Shown: positions 5,611 to 60,453 of the stretch, in pieces
How positions within the stretch are numbered: the stretch's first letter is position 1
Layout of the letters: each line of letters starts with the position of its first letter
Assembly: GCA_038215155.1 (NCBI GenBank)
Contig: JBBQRF010000003.1
Location: 65,904 to 129,903, forward strand
From: Minisyncoccia bacterium
Lineage (GTDB): Bacteria > Patescibacteriota > Minisyncoccia > Phycocordibacterales > CAJBRS01
Direction: 5' to 3'
DNA length: 64,000 nucleotides
Program-made: the position numbers and the translations under genes
Notes under the pieces: generated by a model
Told to the model about the DNA's origin: nothing
The model's input: the letters and a program-made list of their open reading frames with translations, nothing else
The model's database searches: none

Positions 5611-5962
5611 TGTTCTCTTTGAATCCGTAAGCCGAATTCTGTTTTAGGCAATTATTTATCTGTCCTCTCTGTTGCCAGAGGGATCAAGCGGCACCTCCTT
5701 CGAATATTATTCTCAGGATACGGCCTTGCACAGGAGTAAGGATTTTGCCGTTTCACTTCAATGTTGCCATTGAATTCATCCCGAACCCTTTTGATTTAAT
5801 CAAAAGGGTTCGGGATGCCTCACGCTTTCGCGCTCGGCGTCACTGCTCGCACCTCTTGGATTGCTCCAGACGGGTATTACCCGCTACTTTTTCAATTTAA
5901 TGCTCTGTGTTCGGACTTTCCTCCCTATTTTAAAATAGAGCAATTGCTCAATTCAAAGAGGC
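5611..5962 (-). ncRNA. rnpB: RNase P RNA (bacterial type A-like)
   Basis: on minus strand: 5' GGGAGGAAAGUCCGAACAC (P4 5' strand), internal GGGUAAUACCCG, 3' ACAGAAUUCGGCUUACGG (P4 3' strand / P15-16 region); P1 pairing CUCUUUGAAU with AUUCAAAGAG at the two ends. Confidence 0.65.
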
Positions 5963-11950: not shown

Positions 11951-12060
11951 TCCGGAAAATCCGGATGCACCCTACAACTTTTAGCGAGGGTAAGACTTGG
12001 CCTAGCGGCCCGGAGCGCCCTCGATGAAAGTTCGTAGGTGCAGGAGGATTTTCAAGATTA
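11951..12060. repeat. REP-like long palindromic intergenic element, copy A (core loop in reverse orientation)
   Basis: stems cacctacaacttttagcgaggg / ccctcgatgaaagttcgtaggtg flank loop taagacttggcctagcggcccggagcgc, the reverse complement of the loop at 29022-29050 and 31260-31287. Confidence 0.7.
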
Positions 12061-16817: not shown

Positions 16818-18874
16818 AACTTAGGCCAATTAGCCACCATTAATATTTGAGAATCACGGTCCGGCAAAAGTGACCAGATTTCCTCAGTGATAAAAGGCAT
16901 GAATGGATGAAGCAGCTTTAATATAGTAGTTAAGGTTAAACCTAATAGCTCCTTATTTTCCTCCGAATTTTCTTTCTTGGATTCTTCAATGAAGTGGTCA
17001 GCAAAATCATGCCAAATAAAATCGTAAAGAGAATGGGCAGCATTGCCAAATTGGTAGGTCTCGATATTTTTAGAGACTTCCCCAACAGTATTATGAAGTT
17101 TAGCCAGGAATGTTTGATTGACTGGCTCTGTGGCGGAAAAATTTTCTAGATTAGCTGAGAAAATTTTTCCATCTGTTTTATCTAAAACAAACCTACTTAT
17201 ATTCCAAAGTTTATTAGAGAACTTTTTCCCCATATTAATAGCATCTTCACTGAATCGGATTTCTTGTCCTCCAAACTCCTGAAAGATTATGCCAAAACGG
17301 GTAGCATCCGCGCCATATTTTTCAATAAACTCTAAAGGATCAAGACCAGTGCCGAGAGACTTACTCATTCTTTTGCCGTCTTTAGTCAAAATAGTGGCGT
17401 GAATCAGAACATCTTTGAATGGAACCTCACCAGTGAACTCTAATCCCGAAAAAATCATTCGGGAAATCCACTGATGTAAAATGTCGCGAGCCGAGGTAAT
17501 AAAATTAGTTGGATAGAAGTTTGCCAGATCCGGTGCAACACCAGAGGGCCACCCCAGGGTGGCAAATGGCCATAGGGCTGAAGAAAACCAAGTATCAAAA
17601 GTATCTTCACTTTCCGCTAGAGGAATTTTGTGTCCCCACCAGATTTGTCGGGAAATACACCAATCCTTTATATTACGAAGCCAATCGAGCGAAATTTCTT
17701 TCCAACGCTCTGGGTAATAGTTAACTTCGCCAGCCTCAATAGCGGCAATAGCTTTTTCTGCCAGTGGTTTCATATTCAGGAACCACTGTTTAGAAAGCAT
17801 GGGTTCAATAGTGGAACCACAACGATAGCATTTAGCCACGTTGTGAGTAAATTCCTCTTCTTTTTCAATTAGATTAAGGGTGCGAAGACTCTCTAAGATT
17901 TTCTCACGAGCGGCGGCGATTTTCAGACCATCAAAATCGTCGCCGCTATTAATAATTTTCCCAACCTCATTGATAACCTTAAGGTAGGGGAGCTGATGTT
18001 CTTCAGCCAGACGACTGTCAAACATGTCGTGGGCAGGAGTAACTTTTACTGCGCCCGTGCCAAAATCTTTTTCTATTTGCCTGTCTGAGATGATCGGAAT
18101 TTTCCTATTCACTATTGGTAAAATAATATTTTTGCCGATTAGCTCTAAATACCTTTCATCAGTTGGATTAACAGCAACCGCACTATCTCCCAACATAGTT
18201 TCTGGTCGGGTAGTAGCAATAGTTATAAAATTTTTAGAATCTTCAATAGGATATTTTATAAACCAGAGTTTCCCTTTCTCTTCTTCATATTCAAGCTCGA
18301 GATCGGAAAGTGCTGTTTGGTCTTTAATACACCAATTAATAACTCGTTCACCCTGATAGATTAATCCCTTTTTGTAATATTGCTGGAAGGCGCTCTTGAC
18401 TGCCTCCTGATATTTTTCATCCATCGTAAATCGTAGACGCGACCAATCTAGTGAGGCGCCTAATGCTCGCATCTGCTCTAAGATTGTATTGCCATACTTA
18501 TCCTTCCATTCCCATATTTTTTCTAGAAACTTTTCCTTACCTAAGTCGTGGCGAGTAATATTCTCTTTCTTAAGACTTTTTTCCACCACATTTTGAGTAG
18601 CGATGCCAGCATGATCTGTGCCAGGAAGCCACAGAGTTTTGAATCCACGCATCCGGTGGTAACGAATTAAAATATCAGAAATAGTATTTTCCAAGGCATG
18701 ACCCATATGAAGCGAGCCGGTAATATTCGGGGGAGCAATCATAATTGTGTATGGCGTGGCTCGAGCCCCGGGTAAATTGTCGGGATTAAAAAAACCGCTC
18801 GCTTCCCATGCTTGGTAGACGCGAGACTCTGTTTCCTTAGGATTGTATGGCTTTAGTAATTTCTCAGGGATCAT
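16814..18874 (-). CDS. valS: valine--tRNA ligase (short form lacking C-terminal coiled coil)
   Basis: PPNITGSLHMGHALENTISDILIRYHRMRG HIGH region, KMSKSLGT, editing domain. Confidence 0.85.
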   Translation of the reverse strand: MIPEKLLKPYNPKETESRVYQAWEASGFFNPDNLPGARATPYTIMIAPPNITGSLHMGHALENTISDILIRYHRMRGFKTLWLPGTDHAGIATQNVVEKSLKKENITRHDLGKEKFLEKIWEWKDKYGNTILEQMRALGASLDWSRLRFTMDEKYQEAVKSAFQQYYKKGLIYQGERVINWCIKDQTALSDLELEYEEEKGKLWFIKYPIEDSKNFITIATTRPETMLGDSAVAVNPTDERYLELIGKNIILPIVNRKIPIISDRQIEKDFGTGAVKVTPAHDMFDSRLAEEHQLPYLKVINEVGKIINSGDDFDGLKIAAAREKILESLRTLNLIEKEEEFTHNVAKCYRCGSTIEPMLSKQWFLNMKPLAEKAIAAIEAGEVNYYPERWKEISLDWLRNIKDWCISRQIWWGHKIPLAESEDTFDTWFSSALWPFATLGWPSGVAPDLANFYPTNFITSARDILHQWISRMIFSGLEFTGEVPFKDVLIHATILTKDGKRMSKSLGTGLDPLEFIEKYGADATRFGIIFQEFGGQEIRFSEDAINMGKKFSNKLWNISRFVLDKTDGKIFSANLENFSATEPVNQTFLAKLHNTVGEVSKNIETYQFGNAAHSLYDFIWHDFADHFIEESKKENSEENKELLGLTLTTILKLLHPFMPFITEEIWSLLPDRDSQILMVANWPKL

Positions 18875-19270
18875 TAAAAAGGCTGAAAATATTAAGTTAG
18901 ATAAATTTTAGCAAAAATGCTGAGTTTTAGGAATAAAAAGAAAAAGCGCCGCTCTCTATTGAAAGTGGCACTTTTGATACTTAAGAACAAAATTTGATCC
19001 TCGGTTACCTGGGAACTCGGTCGAAACGTTTTCCAACGTCTCTTTTACCGAGCCCCAGGAGGCCGAGAAGATTTACCCGCGCCGCCTAGGGGCTTGGTCG
19101 TAGGCGGCGGCGCGGGCGTTCGAGCAGGCAGCGAGGGAGGACGCGGTAGGGACGTCCGGCACTAGACCGTAGTATCACGAACGGTTGTCGATGCCATATG
19201 CCGCCTGCAAACTTGGCTCGAAATTAGCCCTCGATGAGCAAATTCGGCCACTAATTGTGTAGCTTTCGAC

Positions 19271-19298
19271 AGTATAGCACACCACACCAAATAGTCAA
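19271..19298 (-). promoter_or_regulatory. sigma70-like promoter TTGACT-N16-TATACT directly after the tsaD stop
   Basis: minus strand reads ttgactatttggtgtggtgtgctatact; drives the GC-rich RNA region toward valS. Confidence 0.5.
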
Positions 19299-19302
19299 GG
19301 CC

Positions 19303-20475
19303 TTAAAGGCTGTCTTGCTGCAAGGAGAGATTGCCGGTCGCCCGAAAATCTAAGACCGGTTTATGGTCATTGAGAGATTTAAAATAGCCAGCCATAGCAA
19401 TCATTACGGCATTATCTGTTGAGAGGGAGGGCTGTGGAGTTAGAAGTTTGGTCTCGCCTCCCTCCTTAATTAATTTTTGAAATTCTTGGCGCAGGTGACT
19501 ATTAGCTATTACACCCCCACCCACTATTAATGTTTTAATATTAAATTCTTCAATAGCTTTTTTGGTTTTATATATCAGCACTTCTGTAACTGCGTCCTCG
19601 AATTCTTGCGCTAACTCCTCCTTCCAGAAAGGCAAAAGTTTTTCTGCCTGCGACATTTCTCGAATTCGGTAAAGTACGGCTGTTTTCAAACCAGAAAAAG
19701 AAAAATCATAATCAGGAGAGTTTAGCATGGGACGCGGCAACTTTGTTATTTGATGATTGGATCTTTCTGAAGTTCTGGCTTTTTCCGCTAATTTAGATAT
19801 CTCAGGTCCGCCAGGATAGGGAAGTTCTAACATTCTGGCCACCTTATCAAAAGCTTCGCCGACAGCGTCGTCTCTCGTTCTGCCTAGAATTTCATATTGT
19901 TGCCAATCTCTCATCAGTACTAATTCTGTATGGCCTCCGCTAATTAAAAGGGCTAGTGCGGGAAAGGTAACGGGCTGACTCTGATCTAAGAGAACGGAAA
20001 GTATGTGGCCTTCCATATGATTAATAGGTAAAACAAGTAAATCCCACACTAAACCCAAAGCCCGAGCGAAGTTAACGCCAACCCAAAGTGCAGGCTCGAG
20101 CCCAGGACCAACTGTAACCGCAATAACGTCGATGTCGGGCTTTGGTATTGTAGGAATTACTTCTAAAAATTGTTGAAGTAATTCCGTCTCCCGTTCTAAA
20201 ATTTTTTTAATCTCTTCCTCATTTTCTATCTTTAAATCGCGTGGTTTTTCTAACTGGAACCCTTTTAATAAATCCTTCAGTAAGGGAACCAAATTTTTAG
20301 AATGCTCTCTTTTTGCCATCATTGGATAGACACCACCATATTTCTCATGGATCTTAGTTTGAGAATTAATAGCTTCAGAAATTACCTTAAAATGCGGATG
20401 GCTAAGCCCGCCATCTGCCTCCACAATTGCTAAAGCCGTCTCATCACAACTAGTTTCAATTCCAAGAATTTTCAT
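19303..20475 (-). CDS. tsaD: tRNA N6-adenosine threonylcarbamoyltransferase
   Basis: MKILGIETSCDETALAIV N-terminus (start moved from upstream Met), Kae1/TsaD core. Confidence 0.85.
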   Translation of the reverse strand: MKILGIETSCDETALAIVEADGGLSHPHFKVISEAINSQTKIHEKYGGVYPMMAKREHSKNLVPLLKDLLKGFQLEKPRDLKIENEEEIKKILERETELLQQFLEVIPTIPKPDIDVIAVTVGPGLEPALWVGVNFARALGLVWDLLVLPINHMEGHILSVLLDQSQPVTFPALALLISGGHTELVLMRDWQQYEILGRTRDDAVGEAFDKVARMLELPYPGGPEISKLAEKARTSERSNHQITKLPRPMLNSPDYDFSFSGLKTAVLYRIREMSQAEKLLPFWKEELAQEFEDAVTEVLIYKTKKAIEEFNIKTLIVGGGVIANSHLRQEFQKLIKEGGETKLLTPQPSLSTDNAVMIAMAGYFKSLNDHKPVLDFRATGNLSLQQDSL

Positions 20476-20623
20476 ATATAAAAATAGGATTCGGTCACAC
20501 ATAATTTTTTGCTAAAAATTTGTGCGACCCCGTCTCGCGCCGTCGCGCTCCGACCTTCGAATCCTCTATCACCGCCCAATGACAACCACTCGAAGTGCTC
20601 CCAGCACTTCTTGCGGATCATTG

Positions 20624-20791: not shown

Positions 20792-20833
20792 GACAACGTC
20801 AATGTTGCGCTCTACCAACTGAGCTAACCGCGC
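20792..20833 (-). pseudogene. tRNA-Val 5' fragment (acceptor through anticodon loop, 41 nt) duplicated about 100 nt upstream of the intact gene
   Basis: reverse complement GCGCGGTTAGCTCAGTTGGTAGAGCGCAACATTGACGTTGTC matches the intact tRNA-Val except the acceptor bases, then diverges; no T-arm follows. Confidence 0.6.
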
Positions 20834-21328
20834 TTAGAATCAATTTATCATTTTATATTTACCTAAACAAATTTCCCAAAAAAACCGCCTTTGTATAAAG
20901 CCTTGCTCCGTCTATTAGAGGGTGCCTAAGGTTATAACCTATTTAAATAAAACCTAAAAGTTAGATTGAATAGCTTGAAATATTCCTTTATTTTGCTCGA
21001 CAGTGTAATTATAAGCGTCGTTAAAATTGAATTTAAAAAAAGATAGATATACCCCTAGAATTATTAAAGCAACTAAGTAAAAAACTTTTGACTTCATAAA
21101 GTTATTATAGACCGGTTTGCAACAGATGAATATTGGCTGTGTGGGTAGGGATCTAACCCTAGAGAGTCTCTGGTGAATTCATGCCCACGATCACAGATAA
21201 TTTTCTCGCCGATGGTATCCGAAATCCTATGCGTCGCCAGCACAAACGTCTTTTGTTTAGCCATAACTCACAAAAGTCTAAGTGCTTCGACATCACGAAT
21301 ATATAGTCGCTTCGCTCGTTATATTCTG

Positions 21329-28984: not shown

Positions 28985-29090
28985 TTTAAAATCCTCCCGC
29001 ACCTACGAACTTTTGGCGAGGGCGCTCCGGGCCGCTAGGCCAAGTCTTACCCTCGCCAAAAGTTGTAGGATGCGTCCGGATTTTAGCCTC
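28985..29090. repeat. REP-like long palindromic intergenic element, copy B
   Basis: stems cctacgaacttttggcgaggg / ccctcgccaaaagttgtagg around loop cgctccgggccgctaggccaagtcttac; outer arms aaaatcc..cgcacctac / gtaggatgcgtccggatttt. Confidence 0.7.
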
Positions 29091-31217: not shown

Positions 31218-31330
31218 TTAAATGAAAGATCGCTCCAATAAACCTGCCACTGTCGGGAGCGCTCCGGGCCGCTAGGCCAAGTCTTACTCCCGACAGTGGC
31301 AGGTTTCTCTCCGCTAATTCTTTCATTTTT
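31218..31330. repeat. REP-like long palindromic intergenic element, copy C
   Basis: perfect 20-bp stem aaacctgccactgtcgggag / ctcccgacagtggcaggttt around the same loop cgctccgggccgctaggccaagtcttac; outer arms aaatgaaaga / tctttcattt. Confidence 0.7.
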
Positions 31331-36111: not shown

Positions 36112-36526
36112 TATGAGATTTATTTATATAACAATTATTCTCAGCATTGTCTTTGTCGGAATTTTTGCTGCGCCAGTGGCTTTGGGAGCACCCGGAGGAC
36201 TTGGTAATTTGGACTCCTTCTCCACTCCAGGAGGATCAGGTAATAATGGGGATCCTAACTCTATTCAAAACCCTCTCCGCAGCAGCGGCACCATATATGA
36301 ATTTATTGCTCAGGTATTAAAAGAAGTAGCCAAGATTGGAGCAGTCATCTGTGTCTTCTTCATTATTTATTCTGGGTTTTTATTTGTTACAGCCAGAGGA
36401 AATCCAGAAAAGTTAACTACGGCAAAAAGCGCCCTAGCTTATACTTTAATTGGCGCCGCTATACTTCTAGGCGCAGGTCTCTTGGCTACTATTATTGAAA
36501 ATACTATTAAAAACTTACGAACATGA
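36101..36526 (+). CDS. TrbC/VirB2-like pilin family protein, paralog 2
   Basis: same architecture, loop ARGNPEKLTTAKS; overlaps neighbours as in a tight operon. Confidence 0.5.
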   Translation: MASNMRFIYITIILSIVFVGIFAAPVALGAPGGLGNLDSFSTPGGSGNNGDPNSIQNPLRSSGTIYEFIAQVLKEVAKIGAVICVFFIIYSGFLFVTARGNPEKLTTAKSALAYTLIGAAILLGAGLLATIIENTIKNLRT

Positions 36527-36831
36527 ATTTCTTACCAATTAATTTTGCTTATGCCCAAAGTGGCAAGGCCACAGATTTTAAAAGCCTAGTGCAGCTTTTA
36601 ATTAGTCTTTTAAACATCTTAATCCCACTAATTATCGGGGTGGCTTTAGTAGTTTTTCTTTATGGCATTGTTCGCTACGTTTTAGGTTCGGGCGACGATA
36701 AAAGTTCGGCTAAAAGCATCATGCTTTGGGGCATCATCGCTCTCTTCGTCATGGTTTCGGTTTGGGGATTGGTGGGCATTCTTCAGAGCACCTTTTTTGG
36801 TGGCACTTTAGGCATTCCGCAGCTAAAGTAA
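36523..36831 (+). CDS. TrbC/VirB2-like pilin family protein, paralog 3
   Basis: LYGIVRYVLGSGDDKSSAKSIMLWGIIALFVMVSVWGLV. Confidence 0.5.
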   Translation: MNFLPINFAYAQSGKATDFKSLVQLLISLLNILIPLIIGVALVVFLYGIVRYVLGSGDDKSSAKSIMLWGIIALFVMVSVWGLVGILQSTFFGGTLGIPQLK

Positions 36832-36930
36832 CCTATCCCCAGCACTCCTTTATAGAGAAGGAAATCTATAGTACAATTATAGAAATAAGATCCGGTCAAC
36901 TTTAAATTTATTAATAAATTAACCATTTAA

Positions 36931-37290
36931 ATGAAAAAGTATATTATTGCCGCTTTAACCGTCGTTCTGCCAGGAGTTGCTTTTGGTCAGCAATTAACTA
37001 ACATCAGTGTCTTAATTAGCTCGGCTACGCACATTCTCAACCAGTTAGTGCCATTCTTTATTGGTCTAGGGTTAGTAGTTTTCCTTTTCGGTATCGTTCG
37101 ATATGTACTTGCTGGTTCAGGAGAGGACAAAGCTTCGGCTCGTAGTATCATGATCTACGGCATCATCGCTCTCTTCGTCATGGTTTCGGTGTGGGGATTG
37201 GTGAATTTTCTCGGTAATGCTCTGGGCTTAAATAATACTCAAAATATTCCTGCTCCAAATATTCCAACCAATAATTCTGGAGGTTACTAA
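36931..37290 (+). CDS. TrbC/VirB2-like pilin family protein, paralog 4
   Basis: LFGIVRYVLAGSGEDKASARSIMIYGIIALFVMVSVWGLV; shares a 45-nt near-identical tract with paralog 3. Confidence 0.5.
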   Translation: MKKYIIAALTVVLPGVAFGQQLTNISVLISSATHILNQLVPFFIGLGLVVFLFGIVRYVLAGSGEDKASARSIMIYGIIALFVMVSVWGLVNFLGNALGLNNTQNIPAPNIPTNNSGGY

Positions 37291-37309
37291 AACTTTCCGG
37301 CCAAGCTAA

Positions 37310-37699
37310 ATGAAGAAGACTCTTCTAATTCTCGCCATACTTTTCGTGCCGGGAGTGGCTTTTGGCCAGAGAGCGCCTACTCTTGGATCTCTGCTAAAAT
37401 CGGGGCTCAACATTCTCAATCTTCTCATTCCGTTTATTATTGGCATTGGTCTGGTAATTTTCCTTTACGGCGTAGTGCGGTATGTCCTGGCGGGAGGCAG
37501 TGAAGATAAAGCAGCAGCAAGACAAATAATGCTCTACGGTATCATCGCGCTATTTGTAATGGTGTCGGTGTGGGGATTGGTGAATTTAATTCGGGACGGA
37601 CTAGGCATTAGTAATAATCCTAATATTGTCGCCCCCACAGCACCCAACAGTGATTTCCCGACAAGTGATGGGGGAGAGTCGGGTATAAGATTTAGATAA
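37310..37699 (+). CDS. TrbC/VirB2-like pilin family protein, paralog 5
   Basis: LYGVVRYVLAGGSEDKAAARQIMLYGIIALFVMVSVWGLV. Confidence 0.5.
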   Translation: MKKTLLILAILFVPGVAFGQRAPTLGSLLKSGLNILNLLIPFIIGIGLVIFLYGVVRYVLAGGSEDKAAARQIMLYGIIALFVMVSVWGLVNLIRDGLGISNNPNIVAPTAPNSDFPTSDGGESGIRFR

Positions 37700-39829: not shown

Positions 39830-39958
39830 ATGTGGTCACGAATCACTAAGTCTGCTCATTCGCTTCTAATTATAGCGAATTGCGCGGACTAAGTGTTCGC
39901 GACCCCGCCTCGTCTGTCTCGCAAAACCTCGACATGACTGCGGCCGGCACAAGTCCGC

Positions 39959-40084: not shown

Positions 40085-40120
40085 TAAAGTCCGTAAAGTC
40101 CGTAAAGTCCGTAAAGTCCG
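40085..40120. repeat. 9-bp tandem repeat (taaagtccg) x4 in the tRNA spacer
   Basis: four exact head-to-tail copies, fifth degenerate (taaagattc); followed by tttatagac x2. Confidence 0.8.
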
Positions 40121-60063: not shown

Positions 60064-60080
60064 ATTTGCAGCGTAATATT

Positions 60081-60180
60081 TGCGGGATCGTCTAATGGTA
60101 GGCTCCCTGTTTACACACGACGCATTGCGAGTGTTCCAGTAAACAGCAGTGCCGATGACTCATTCATCGGCAGTCCGCAA
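60081..60180 (+). pseudogene. tRNA-Gln 5' fragment (22 nt identical) fused to a 100-nt hairpin-rich pseudo-tRNA-like segment
   Basis: TGCGGGATCGTCTAATGGTAGG is identical to the start of tRNA-Gln at 60232; then hairpins ctgtttac..gtaaacag and gccgatga ctcat tcatcggc, ending gTCCGCA (acceptor-complement-like). Confidence 0.5.
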
Positions 60181-60231
60181 CAGGGTCGGTATAATGTTAA
60201 TGGGTTAAGAGAATGTAATAATTTAATATAT

Positions 60232-60302
60232 TGCGGGATCGTCTAATGGTAGGACAACGGATTTTGGATCCGTTTATCTAGGTTCGAATCCTAGTCCCGC
60301 AG
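60232..60302 (+). tRNA. tRNA-Gln (anticodon TTG), U1:A72
   Basis: TGCGGGATCGTCTAATGGTAGGACAACGGATTTTGGATCCGTTTATCTAGGTTCGAATCCTAGTCCCGCAG. Confidence 0.85.
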
Positions 60303-60453
60303 CCGCCAATTTTTAAGAAGAGAATCGACTATAAAAATTGAGCGCGTCGCCGCTCCTCATGAGGCGACGTAGACTATTTTTTAACGAAGGAGGAAACGAC
60401 TGAATATAAAATTTCAGCGCGCCGACGAATCTTTGAGTTGGCATAATCAAACT

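Follow-up and report, generated by a model that had tools for sequence, protein, structure and literature searches.

We asked what occupies the 428-nt non-coding spacer between tsaD and valS in the genome of an uncultured Candidatus Paceibacterota (Parcubacteria, candidate phyla radiation (CPR)), an affiliation based on which organisms have the closest valS genes. The DNA analyzed was a 64-kb stretch of this genome, hereafter the window, in whose numbering all coordinates are given; tsaD, valS and the RNA unit predicted between them are on the minus strand. CPR genomes are tiny and densely packed, and a spacer of this length with a strongly promoted, heavily structured predicted RNA is unusual for such a genome. 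The initial annotation had left two readings: an independent non-coding RNA (ncRNA), such as transfer-messenger RNA (tmRNA) or 6S RNA, or a long valS leader, such as a T-box riboswitch. The explanation that we favor, and to which we give about an even chance, is a stand-alone small RNA (sRNA) gene of ~328 nt that is strongly transcribed into a stable, structured RNA, is restricted to one lineage and belongs to no described RNA family. To our knowledge, the regulatory RNAs of the CPR are almost unexplored; this RNA, if expressed, would be among the very few candidate lineage-specific ncRNAs in Paceibacterota.

The predicted promoter of the RNA unit (19298-19271) starts 5 nt past the tsaD stop codon and comprises a -35 element TTGACT (19298-19293), a 16-nt spacer with a TG at 19279-19278, and a -10 element TATACT (19276-19271). 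It was found just as the initial annotation had described it (near-consensus TTGACT-N16-TATACT, 19271-19298) and matches the consensus at 10 of 12 positions, with the TG making an extended -10 (TGcTATACT). From this promoter, a transcript of ~328 nt (19264-18937) is predicted, its start placed 7 nt downstream of the -10 and its end within a U-tract. The U-tract belongs to a putative intrinsic terminator (18971-18935), in which the stem GUGCCACUUUC / GAGAGCGGCGC (18971-18946) closes a loop AAUA and is followed by UUUUUCUUUUU (18945-18935). The hairpin is interrupted, with 11 pairs, and was not listed by a simple terminator scan, probably because of the one mismatch in its stem. The T-run that had been noted at 18936-18949 thus exists, with its coordinates corrected to 18945-18935 on the minus strand, and its distance of about 60 nt from valS holds: the U-tract ends 60 nt ahead of the ATG at 18874.

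For comparison, we took 160 valS loci from GTDB genomes and JGI metagenomes (numbered with the prefix L), to which contig look-ups via protein matches added L161-L165. In relatives with short tsaD-valS spacers (24-63 nt, e.g. L091, L096 and L120), an extended -10 of the form TTTnnTGnTAnAAT lies 6-12 nt before the valS ATG, and a valS promoter of this type also is present in L161, L002 and L003. The window has the same motif in a proximal extended -10 promoter, TGCTAAAAT (18913-18905), which lies past the RNA terminator at a distance of 30 nt from the valS ATG. Because this element follows the terminator, and because the motif recurs before the ATG in relatives with leaderless spacers, valS likely has its own promoter, and the G+C-rich unit can therefore be read as inserted after the tsaD stop and ahead of that promoter, complete with a promoter and terminator of its own. 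Moreover, the spacer upstream of valS is shorter than 130 nt in most of ~100 related loci, with tsaD-valS spacers often of 9-63 nt, which argues against a conserved regulatory valS leader; a conserved or obligatory leader is disfavored by these comparisons. Of the two readings in the initial annotation, the independent transcription unit is the one supported, by its own promoter and terminator and the separate valS promoter, and the valS leader is the one disfavored, given that most related spacers are short and none of the loci holds a homolog. The unit appears to have what is generally expected of an independent sRNA gene, namely its own promoter, its own intrinsic terminator and no conserved open reading frame (ORF). 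Separately, the position of the valS promoter only 6-12 nt before the ATG in many relatives suggests leaderless or near-leaderless mRNAs, and most genes in the window lack a Shine-Dalgarno sequence.

The unit stands out from the window in composition and folding. Its G+C content is 56.4% without the terminator and 54.4% with it, compared to 41.5% for the window, and peaks at 72% (19050-19149); the enrichment reported earlier is real, though the figure given for it (~58%) is slightly high. The earlier statement that no ORF reaches 60 aa also was confirmed. The longest ORF, of 42 aa from a TTG start (19162-19290), begins inside the promoter, and the reading frames in the unit are short, rich in Arg, Pro and Ala as in G+C-rich noise, and devoid of hydrophobic segments. 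When compared with dinucleotide shuffles, the minus-strand RNA folded at -143.1 kcal/mol (z = -7.56), a value equaled by 0 of 100 shuffles; the plus strand also folds significantly, at -129.6 kcal/mol (z = -3.78), and without the terminator the z-scores were -5.9 for the minus strand and -3.3 for the plus strand. Over 150-nt segments, the unit equals the window's RNase P RNA and tRNA regions in degree of structure. The predicted fold leaves very little single-stranded sequence, and no tandem repeats or array-like organization were found in the unit.

Four domains precede the terminator in the predicted fold. H1, a 5' hairpin in both the minimum-free-energy and centroid folds (19250-19214; RNA nt 15-51), carries CUCAUCGAGGG; the L161 RNA has a similar CUCAUCG..GAGGG string close to its 5' end, a similarity that is not statistically significant. 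H2 is a three-way junction (19212-19118; RNA nt 53-147) with a closing stem of 9+4 bp, two arms bearing the loops UCGUGAUACU and CCCUACC, and a single-stranded UCCCUC. H3 is a G+C clamp hairpin of 12 bp (19117-19075; GCCCGCGCCGCC / GGCGGCGCGGGU) with a 19-nt loop containing CGACCAA, and is the sole part of the RNA with a detectable relative. Within it lies the perfect 11-bp G+C hairpin that had been reported at 19073-19116; the hairpin is as claimed, but its arms occupy 19076-19086 and 19106-19116, on either side of the 19-nt loop, so that the first coordinate moves to 19076. H4 is a rod-like hairpin of ~72 nt (19069-18998; RNA nt 196-267), capped by a GGAA tetraloop and interrupted by an internal loop AAAAGAG/UUCG, and the L161 RNA has a rod hairpin of similar size (~67 nt) at the same relative position.

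The window genome appears to have no close relative in the collections searched: among 5.8 billion proteins, which did not include those of the window itself, the best TsaD match was 68% identical and the best ValS match 76%. Together with L161 (JGI Ga0070741_10000041), L162 and L001, the window forms a small clade with mutual TsaD identities of 65-68%. The motif TTGACT...TGCTATAMT stands directly past the tsaD stop in three of the four members (window, L161 and L001). In L162, a TTGACT without a recognizable -10 is found there, followed by a second promoter, TTGACA-N17-TATGCT, and the contig ends inside the unit. It is this recurrence of the motif at the same place in relatives that makes the promoter credible. 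A terminator closes the unit in both relatives that can be read throughout (L161 and L001). L161 has the gene order of the window (tRNA-Val, tsaD, RNA, valS, prsW, hsp20) and a nearly identical promoter, and its RNA, of 467 nt and 52% G+C vs 43%, also is strongly folded (z = -6.0) and is followed by a terminator and the valS promoter.

Outside of this clade, the same position holds other cargo. L002/L163 carry two unrelated promoter-terminator units that are short and structured (z = -3.0 and -6.7), and the place is taken in L003 and L095 by unrelated genes for small membrane proteins, again with a strong promoter and a terminator of this kind. In each case, the small cargo lies just upstream of the valS promoter (L002, 690-1140; L003, 2700-2950; L095, 2100-2400), and this position looks like a hot spot for small lineage-specific genes.

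Sequence searches with nhmmer and blastn found no homolog of the unit in the 160 valS loci, and pairwise similarity among the window, L161, L001 and L002 RNAs was not significant, save for a weak block shared by the window and L161 around the G+C hairpin. The unit was also searched for with covariance models. For the model built from H3 and H4 (R1), the best non-self match in 611 kb, both strands, was the G+C hairpin of L161 (5457-5526, 17.7 bits). On its own this score is borderline, but a chance origin is unlikely because the match is on the same strand and inside the syntenic RNA, with syntenic spacer making up only ~2 kb of the 1.2 Mb searched. The model built from the 5' domain H2 (R2) found no counterpart in the related loci. 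The window and L161 hairpins have in common the stem CCCGCGYCGCC/GGCGRCGCGGG, CGACYAA in the loop's 3' part, and the flanking strings AAC, ahead of the stem, and AUYUYCUC, behind it. Ten of the 12 H3 pairs are invariant, and in the remaining two both bases are replaced (G-U becoming C-G, and C-G becoming U-A), such that all 24 cells pair, in a count that uses the L161 hairpin with 18 loop nucleotides trimmed by hand, as unaided MAFFT failed to align the block. Apart from this L161 hairpin, no further copy of any part of the unit was found in the 64-kb window or in 165 related loci. Searches of phage, plasmid and viral-contig DNA gave no meaningful match, only low-complexity G+C hairpin matches in actinobacterial plasmids.

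The unit also was compared with known RNA families. We searched Rfam 15 with the whole window at the gathering score, and with 18850-19350, both strands, at E ≤ 10 with permissive filters. The first search returned only RNase P RNA and tRNAs, and the second no tmRNA, T-box, 6S RNA, signal recognition particle (SRP) RNA or riboswitch, only terminator-driven, sub-threshold matches to L10/L20 leaders. The corresponding searches for L161 and L002 had the same kind of outcome, with no housekeeping-family match in L161. The identities proposed in the initial annotation (tmRNA, 6S RNA or T-box, with SRP RNA among the families that it named for comparison) thus drew no match even at E ≤ 10. This is a useful negative, implying that valS in the window is not under T-box control and that the element is not the tmRNA of this genome. 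The RNase P RNA, of bacterial class A (5612-5959, minus strand), scored 119 bits against a gathering score of 100, a weak score that is explained by several peripheral helices being shortened or missing.

Individual families were rejected on specific grounds. For tmRNA (RF00023, RF01849-51), ARAGORN reported neither a standard nor a permuted form in the window or L161, the sequence has no GGUUCRANYCC-type T-arm/T-loop, acceptor stem or CCA end, and candidate tag frames end in ...RDTTV rather than in an ALAA-type or hydrophobic tail. A by-eye likeness to Escherichia coli tmRNA (UCGA-GGG, ACCGAGGAU) was at chance level upon alignment to the E. coli sequence. In T-box leaders, a UGGN bulge in the antiterminator pairs with the NCCA end of the tRNA in competition with the terminator. 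The window unit has no AGGGUGGUACCGCG-like motif (T-box, RF00230), and the candidate put forward earlier, CCAGGUAACCGAGG, lies inside the H4 rod, not beside the terminator. 6S RNA (RF00013) is a rod of ~150-200 nt with a large central bubble; the window RNA is 328 nt long, forms four separate domains in the minimum-free-energy and centroid folds rather than a rod, and does not match the model. Bacterial SRP RNA (RF00169, RF01854) has in helix 8 a GNAR tetraloop with conserved symmetric and asymmetric loops (AGCA/GGAA). H4 has the GGAA tetraloop, but the conserved flanking loops are absent, and the models gave no match.

The best explanation for these data is an RNA restricted to a small Paceibacterota subclade, in which the body evolves fast while the promoter, the overall layout and the clamp hairpin, flanks included, are retained. 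In the mechanism that we propose, a strong sigma-70-type promoter (-35, extended TG and -10) would start transcription and the intrinsic terminator would stop it, with valS transcribed separately from its own extended -10 promoter. The RNA would fold into the 5' hairpin, the three-way junction, the 12-bp G+C clamp with its exposed CGACCAA-containing loop and the 72-nt rod with the GGAA tetraloop. We infer that it probably acts in trans, most likely by binding protein as a scaffold or decoy, with the clamp hairpin as the core. Antisense regulation and valS attenuation are less likely modes of action. A protein scaffold or decoy is favored over antisense pairing because the RNA has little single-stranded sequence, Shine-Dalgarno sequences are few and no target duplex was outstanding. 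An anti-Shine-Dalgarno role for the C-rich loops was rejected for similar reasons, given that genes in the window mostly lack such a sequence and no target duplex stood out. More speculatively, the unit might represent a new class of large, fast-evolving structured ncRNA, fixed between tsaD and valS under a conserved promoter in a Paceibacterota subclade, with the clamp hairpin as the core of a ribonucleoprotein or regulatory decoy and perhaps a 6S-like role; we consider this more ambitious proposal unlikely.

A number of observations weigh against an independent sRNA gene. The promoter match taken alone is weak evidence, because the 64-kb window contains four sites of equal quality where shuffles gave 1.7 ± 1.8. 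Both transcription and the transcript ends are predicted from the DNA sequence, and read-through from the terminator into valS may occur. The opposite strand, too, can form the long, near-perfect rod hairpins, which resemble palindromic intergenic elements. In L001, a member of the same clade, the unit is only ~150 nt long and not significantly structured (z = -0.84), and the RNA body therefore appears dispensable. The relation to the L161 RNA also is tenuous at the sequence level: nhmmer aligned nothing between the two, their local alignment was not significant (z = 2.6; 5 of 200 shuffles as good), and their common k-mers were at chance level. The R1 match to L161 has an E-value of 0.28 in the 611-kb search, compared to 0.015 in 33 kb. 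The compensatory count in H3 was matched by 120 of 500 shuffles and, coming from two sequences, is statistically not meaningful. Finally, the window and L161 are the only two comparable members, and what they have in common is the promoter, one hairpin core, a ~70-nt rod hairpin and the terminator, the rest having diverged.

One alternative is that the spacer is a permissive site that has gathered palindromic hairpins like repetitive extragenic palindromic (REP) sequences or miniature inverted-repeat transposable elements (MITEs), which would serve tsaD and valS as terminators or insulators at the very most; no dedicated RNA function would exist, and the promoter would be incidental or a relic. 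The unit consists mostly of long, near-perfect rod hairpins (H3, H4 and the terminator) with a z-score of -3.78 on the opposite strand, and only one G+C hairpin is conserved in sequence between the window RNA and L161. What fills the tsaD-valS spacer varies from relative to relative (L001 has ~150 nt, L002 two units, and L003 and L095 small membrane-protein genes), suggesting an insertion hot spot. The same genome also carries an unrelated family of ~100-nt rod-hairpin repeats, with at least three copies and a partial copy in 64 kb, located just after genes, a further point that weighs against a dedicated RNA. Nevertheless, no part of the unit has a second copy in the window, compared to three to four copies for the true repeat family, and the transcribed strand folds clearly better than the other. 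The TTGACT-type promoter is at the same place in L161 and L001 (in L162 as a TTGACT without a recognizable -10), and the terminator is present in L161 and L001. H2, moreover, is an irregular three-way junction and not a palindrome. On balance, we consider an accumulation of palindromes to be unlikely.

The repeat family has copies at 11956-12055 (plus strand), 28985-29084 (reverse) and 50471-50557 (plus strand), positioned shortly after lepA, pth and parB; the identity is 92% between two of them and 71% for the third. The repeat is strongly structured, with a z-score of -6.8, and Rfam gave no match to it at E ≤ 1. Its inner segment, GTAAGACTTGGCCTAGCGGCCCGGAGCGC, recurs at 31253-31287, inside a different 20-bp stem at ~31230-31320. 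The family may consist of mobile, terminator-like hairpins or represent an RNA motif that is not yet described. A relation between it and the 5' part of the RNA unit, with which it has the strings CAUCGAGGGC and GCCAAGU in common, was considered, but the alignment gave p ~ 0.04 and we treat the relation as unproven.

A separate sRNA gene also must be weighed against a long 5' leader or attenuator of valS, transcribed from the distal promoter, in which a signal such as uncharged tRNA-Val, valyl-tRNA synthetase (ValRS) or a metabolite would allow read-through of the terminator by a mechanism other than that of a canonical T-box. The location is suggestive: the next gene on this strand encodes an aminoacyl-tRNA synthetase, and the terminator of the unit ends 60 nt before its ATG. 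L161, L001 and L002 likewise have promoter-to-terminator units just before valS. A possible antiterminator is offered by the 5' sequence AGUGGC, the complement of a GCCACU in the terminator's 5' arm, a match of 6 bp that may be due to chance; L161, however, shows no comparable pairing. No T-box or other leader family matched at E ≤ 10, and the matches to the L10 leader (23.6 bits vs 44) and L20 leader (17.4 vs 58.7) were sub-threshold and terminator-like. The leader bodies are unrelated to each other, most of the ~100 related valS spacers are shorter than 130 nt, and the extended -10 that valS has after the terminator is conserved in relatives lacking any leader. Given these observations, attenuation of valS seems quite improbable.

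Another possibility is that the unit encodes one or several very small proteins, such as the product of a 30-codon frame starting at GUG 19251. L003 and L095 hold small membrane-protein genes at the same position with the same kind of promoter and terminator, and L161 has a 33-codon frame near its 5' end with a hydrophobic C-terminus. The missing Shine-Dalgarno sequence is uninformative here, because genes in this genome often lack one. Against this, comparison of the window with L161, L001 and L002 shows no conserved frame, the window frames are short, rich in Arg, Pro and Ala and without a hydrophobic segment, and strong structure spans the whole unit. We regard a coding function as very unlikely.

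A highly divergent housekeeping RNA (tmRNA, 6S RNA or SRP RNA) missed by covariance models in this CPR lineage is the least probable explanation of all, a very slim chance despite a length (~330 nt) typical of tmRNA, a strong promoter and terminator of its own, an H4 tetraloop (GGAA) as in SRP helix 8 and the lack of all three RNAs elsewhere in the 64-kb window, which says little because the window is a small part of the genome, since there is no Rfam match at E ≤ 10 in the window and none in L161, no ARAGORN prediction, no T-loop, acceptor stem with CCA or tag frame, a similarity to E. coli tmRNA at chance, a multi-domain fold in place of a rod with a central bubble, and a patchy distribution, with the closely syntenic L001 lacking the RNA, which therefore fits an essential RNA poorly.

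The genes around the unit are, in minus-strand order, tRNA-Val (20696-20623), tsaD (20502-19303; TIGR03723, 358 bits), the 428-nt spacer, valS (18874-16814; NF004349, 938 bits), prsW and hsp20. ValRS in the window and its relatives is only 686 aa long, compared to ~860 positions in the NCBIfam valS profiles. We noted partial copies of tRNA-Val on both sides of the gene: a 43-nt duplicate of its 5' part (95% identical) at 20793-20835, ~100 nt upstream, and an inverted copy of its 3' half (TGGGCGGTGATAGAGGATTCGAA) at 20556-20578, ~45 nt downstream. The latter sits in a G+C-rich 120-nt spacer preceding tsaD; in L161, tRNA-Val abuts tsaD without such a spacer. Recombination or integration at this tRNA gene may have left the partial copies behind as scars. 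The 22-nt intergenic motif AAATTTKYGCGACCCCGNCTCG is found at three places in the window (20516-20537, 39891-39912 and 50675-50696), with one copy directly upstream of the tsaD start.

Other duplications were seen elsewhere in the window. The 5' end of tRNA-Gln (60232-60304) has an exact 23-nt duplicate (60080-60102 and 60231-60253) 151 nt upstream of the gene, and four perfect tandem copies of a 9-nt unit, TAAAGTCCG, lie between tRNA-Leu and tRNA-Cys (40085-40120). Three adjacent small genes on the plus strand (36523-37699), of 102, 119 and 129 aa, have in common a conserved C-terminal segment of 90 nt (69-83% identical) and are therefore tandem paralogs.

How, then, does the predicted RNA compare with known systems? 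Like a T-box leader (RF00230), it lies upstream of a synthetase gene, on the same strand, extends over a few hundred nucleotides and has several stems and an intrinsic terminator. Unlike a T-box leader, it has no model match, T-box sequence, UGGN bulge, Stem I or specifier loop; in addition, valS is preceded by a promoter of its own beyond the terminator, and the element is absent from most orthologous valS loci. It resembles tmRNA in its length of ~330 nt, its G+C-richness relative to the genome, its several domains and its own promoter and terminator, but differs in having no tRNA-like domain or plausible tag frame, no ARAGORN or Rfam match, and in being missing from L001. With REP sequences and bacterial interspersed mosaic elements (BIMEs) of enterobacteria and with the Rickettsia palindromic elements, it has in common G+C-rich, near-perfect hairpins, a spacer location at the 3' end of a gene and a lineage-specific, variable content. 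In contrast to those elements, it is single-copy in 64 kb, has a conserved promoter and an irregular junction, and folds preferentially on one strand.

A further comparison is with orphan structured ncRNA candidates, reported from searches of A+T-rich bacterial genomes for long intergenic regions rich in G+C (PMC6429828, PMC8632094, PMC11109978). The window RNA differs from these candidates in that it matches none of their motifs deposited in Rfam 15 and, having only one weak relative, lacks the covariation support of the published motifs. The signature is the same in both: a compact, A+T-rich genome in which an unusually long intergenic region is enriched in G+C, forms many stems and holds no ORF.

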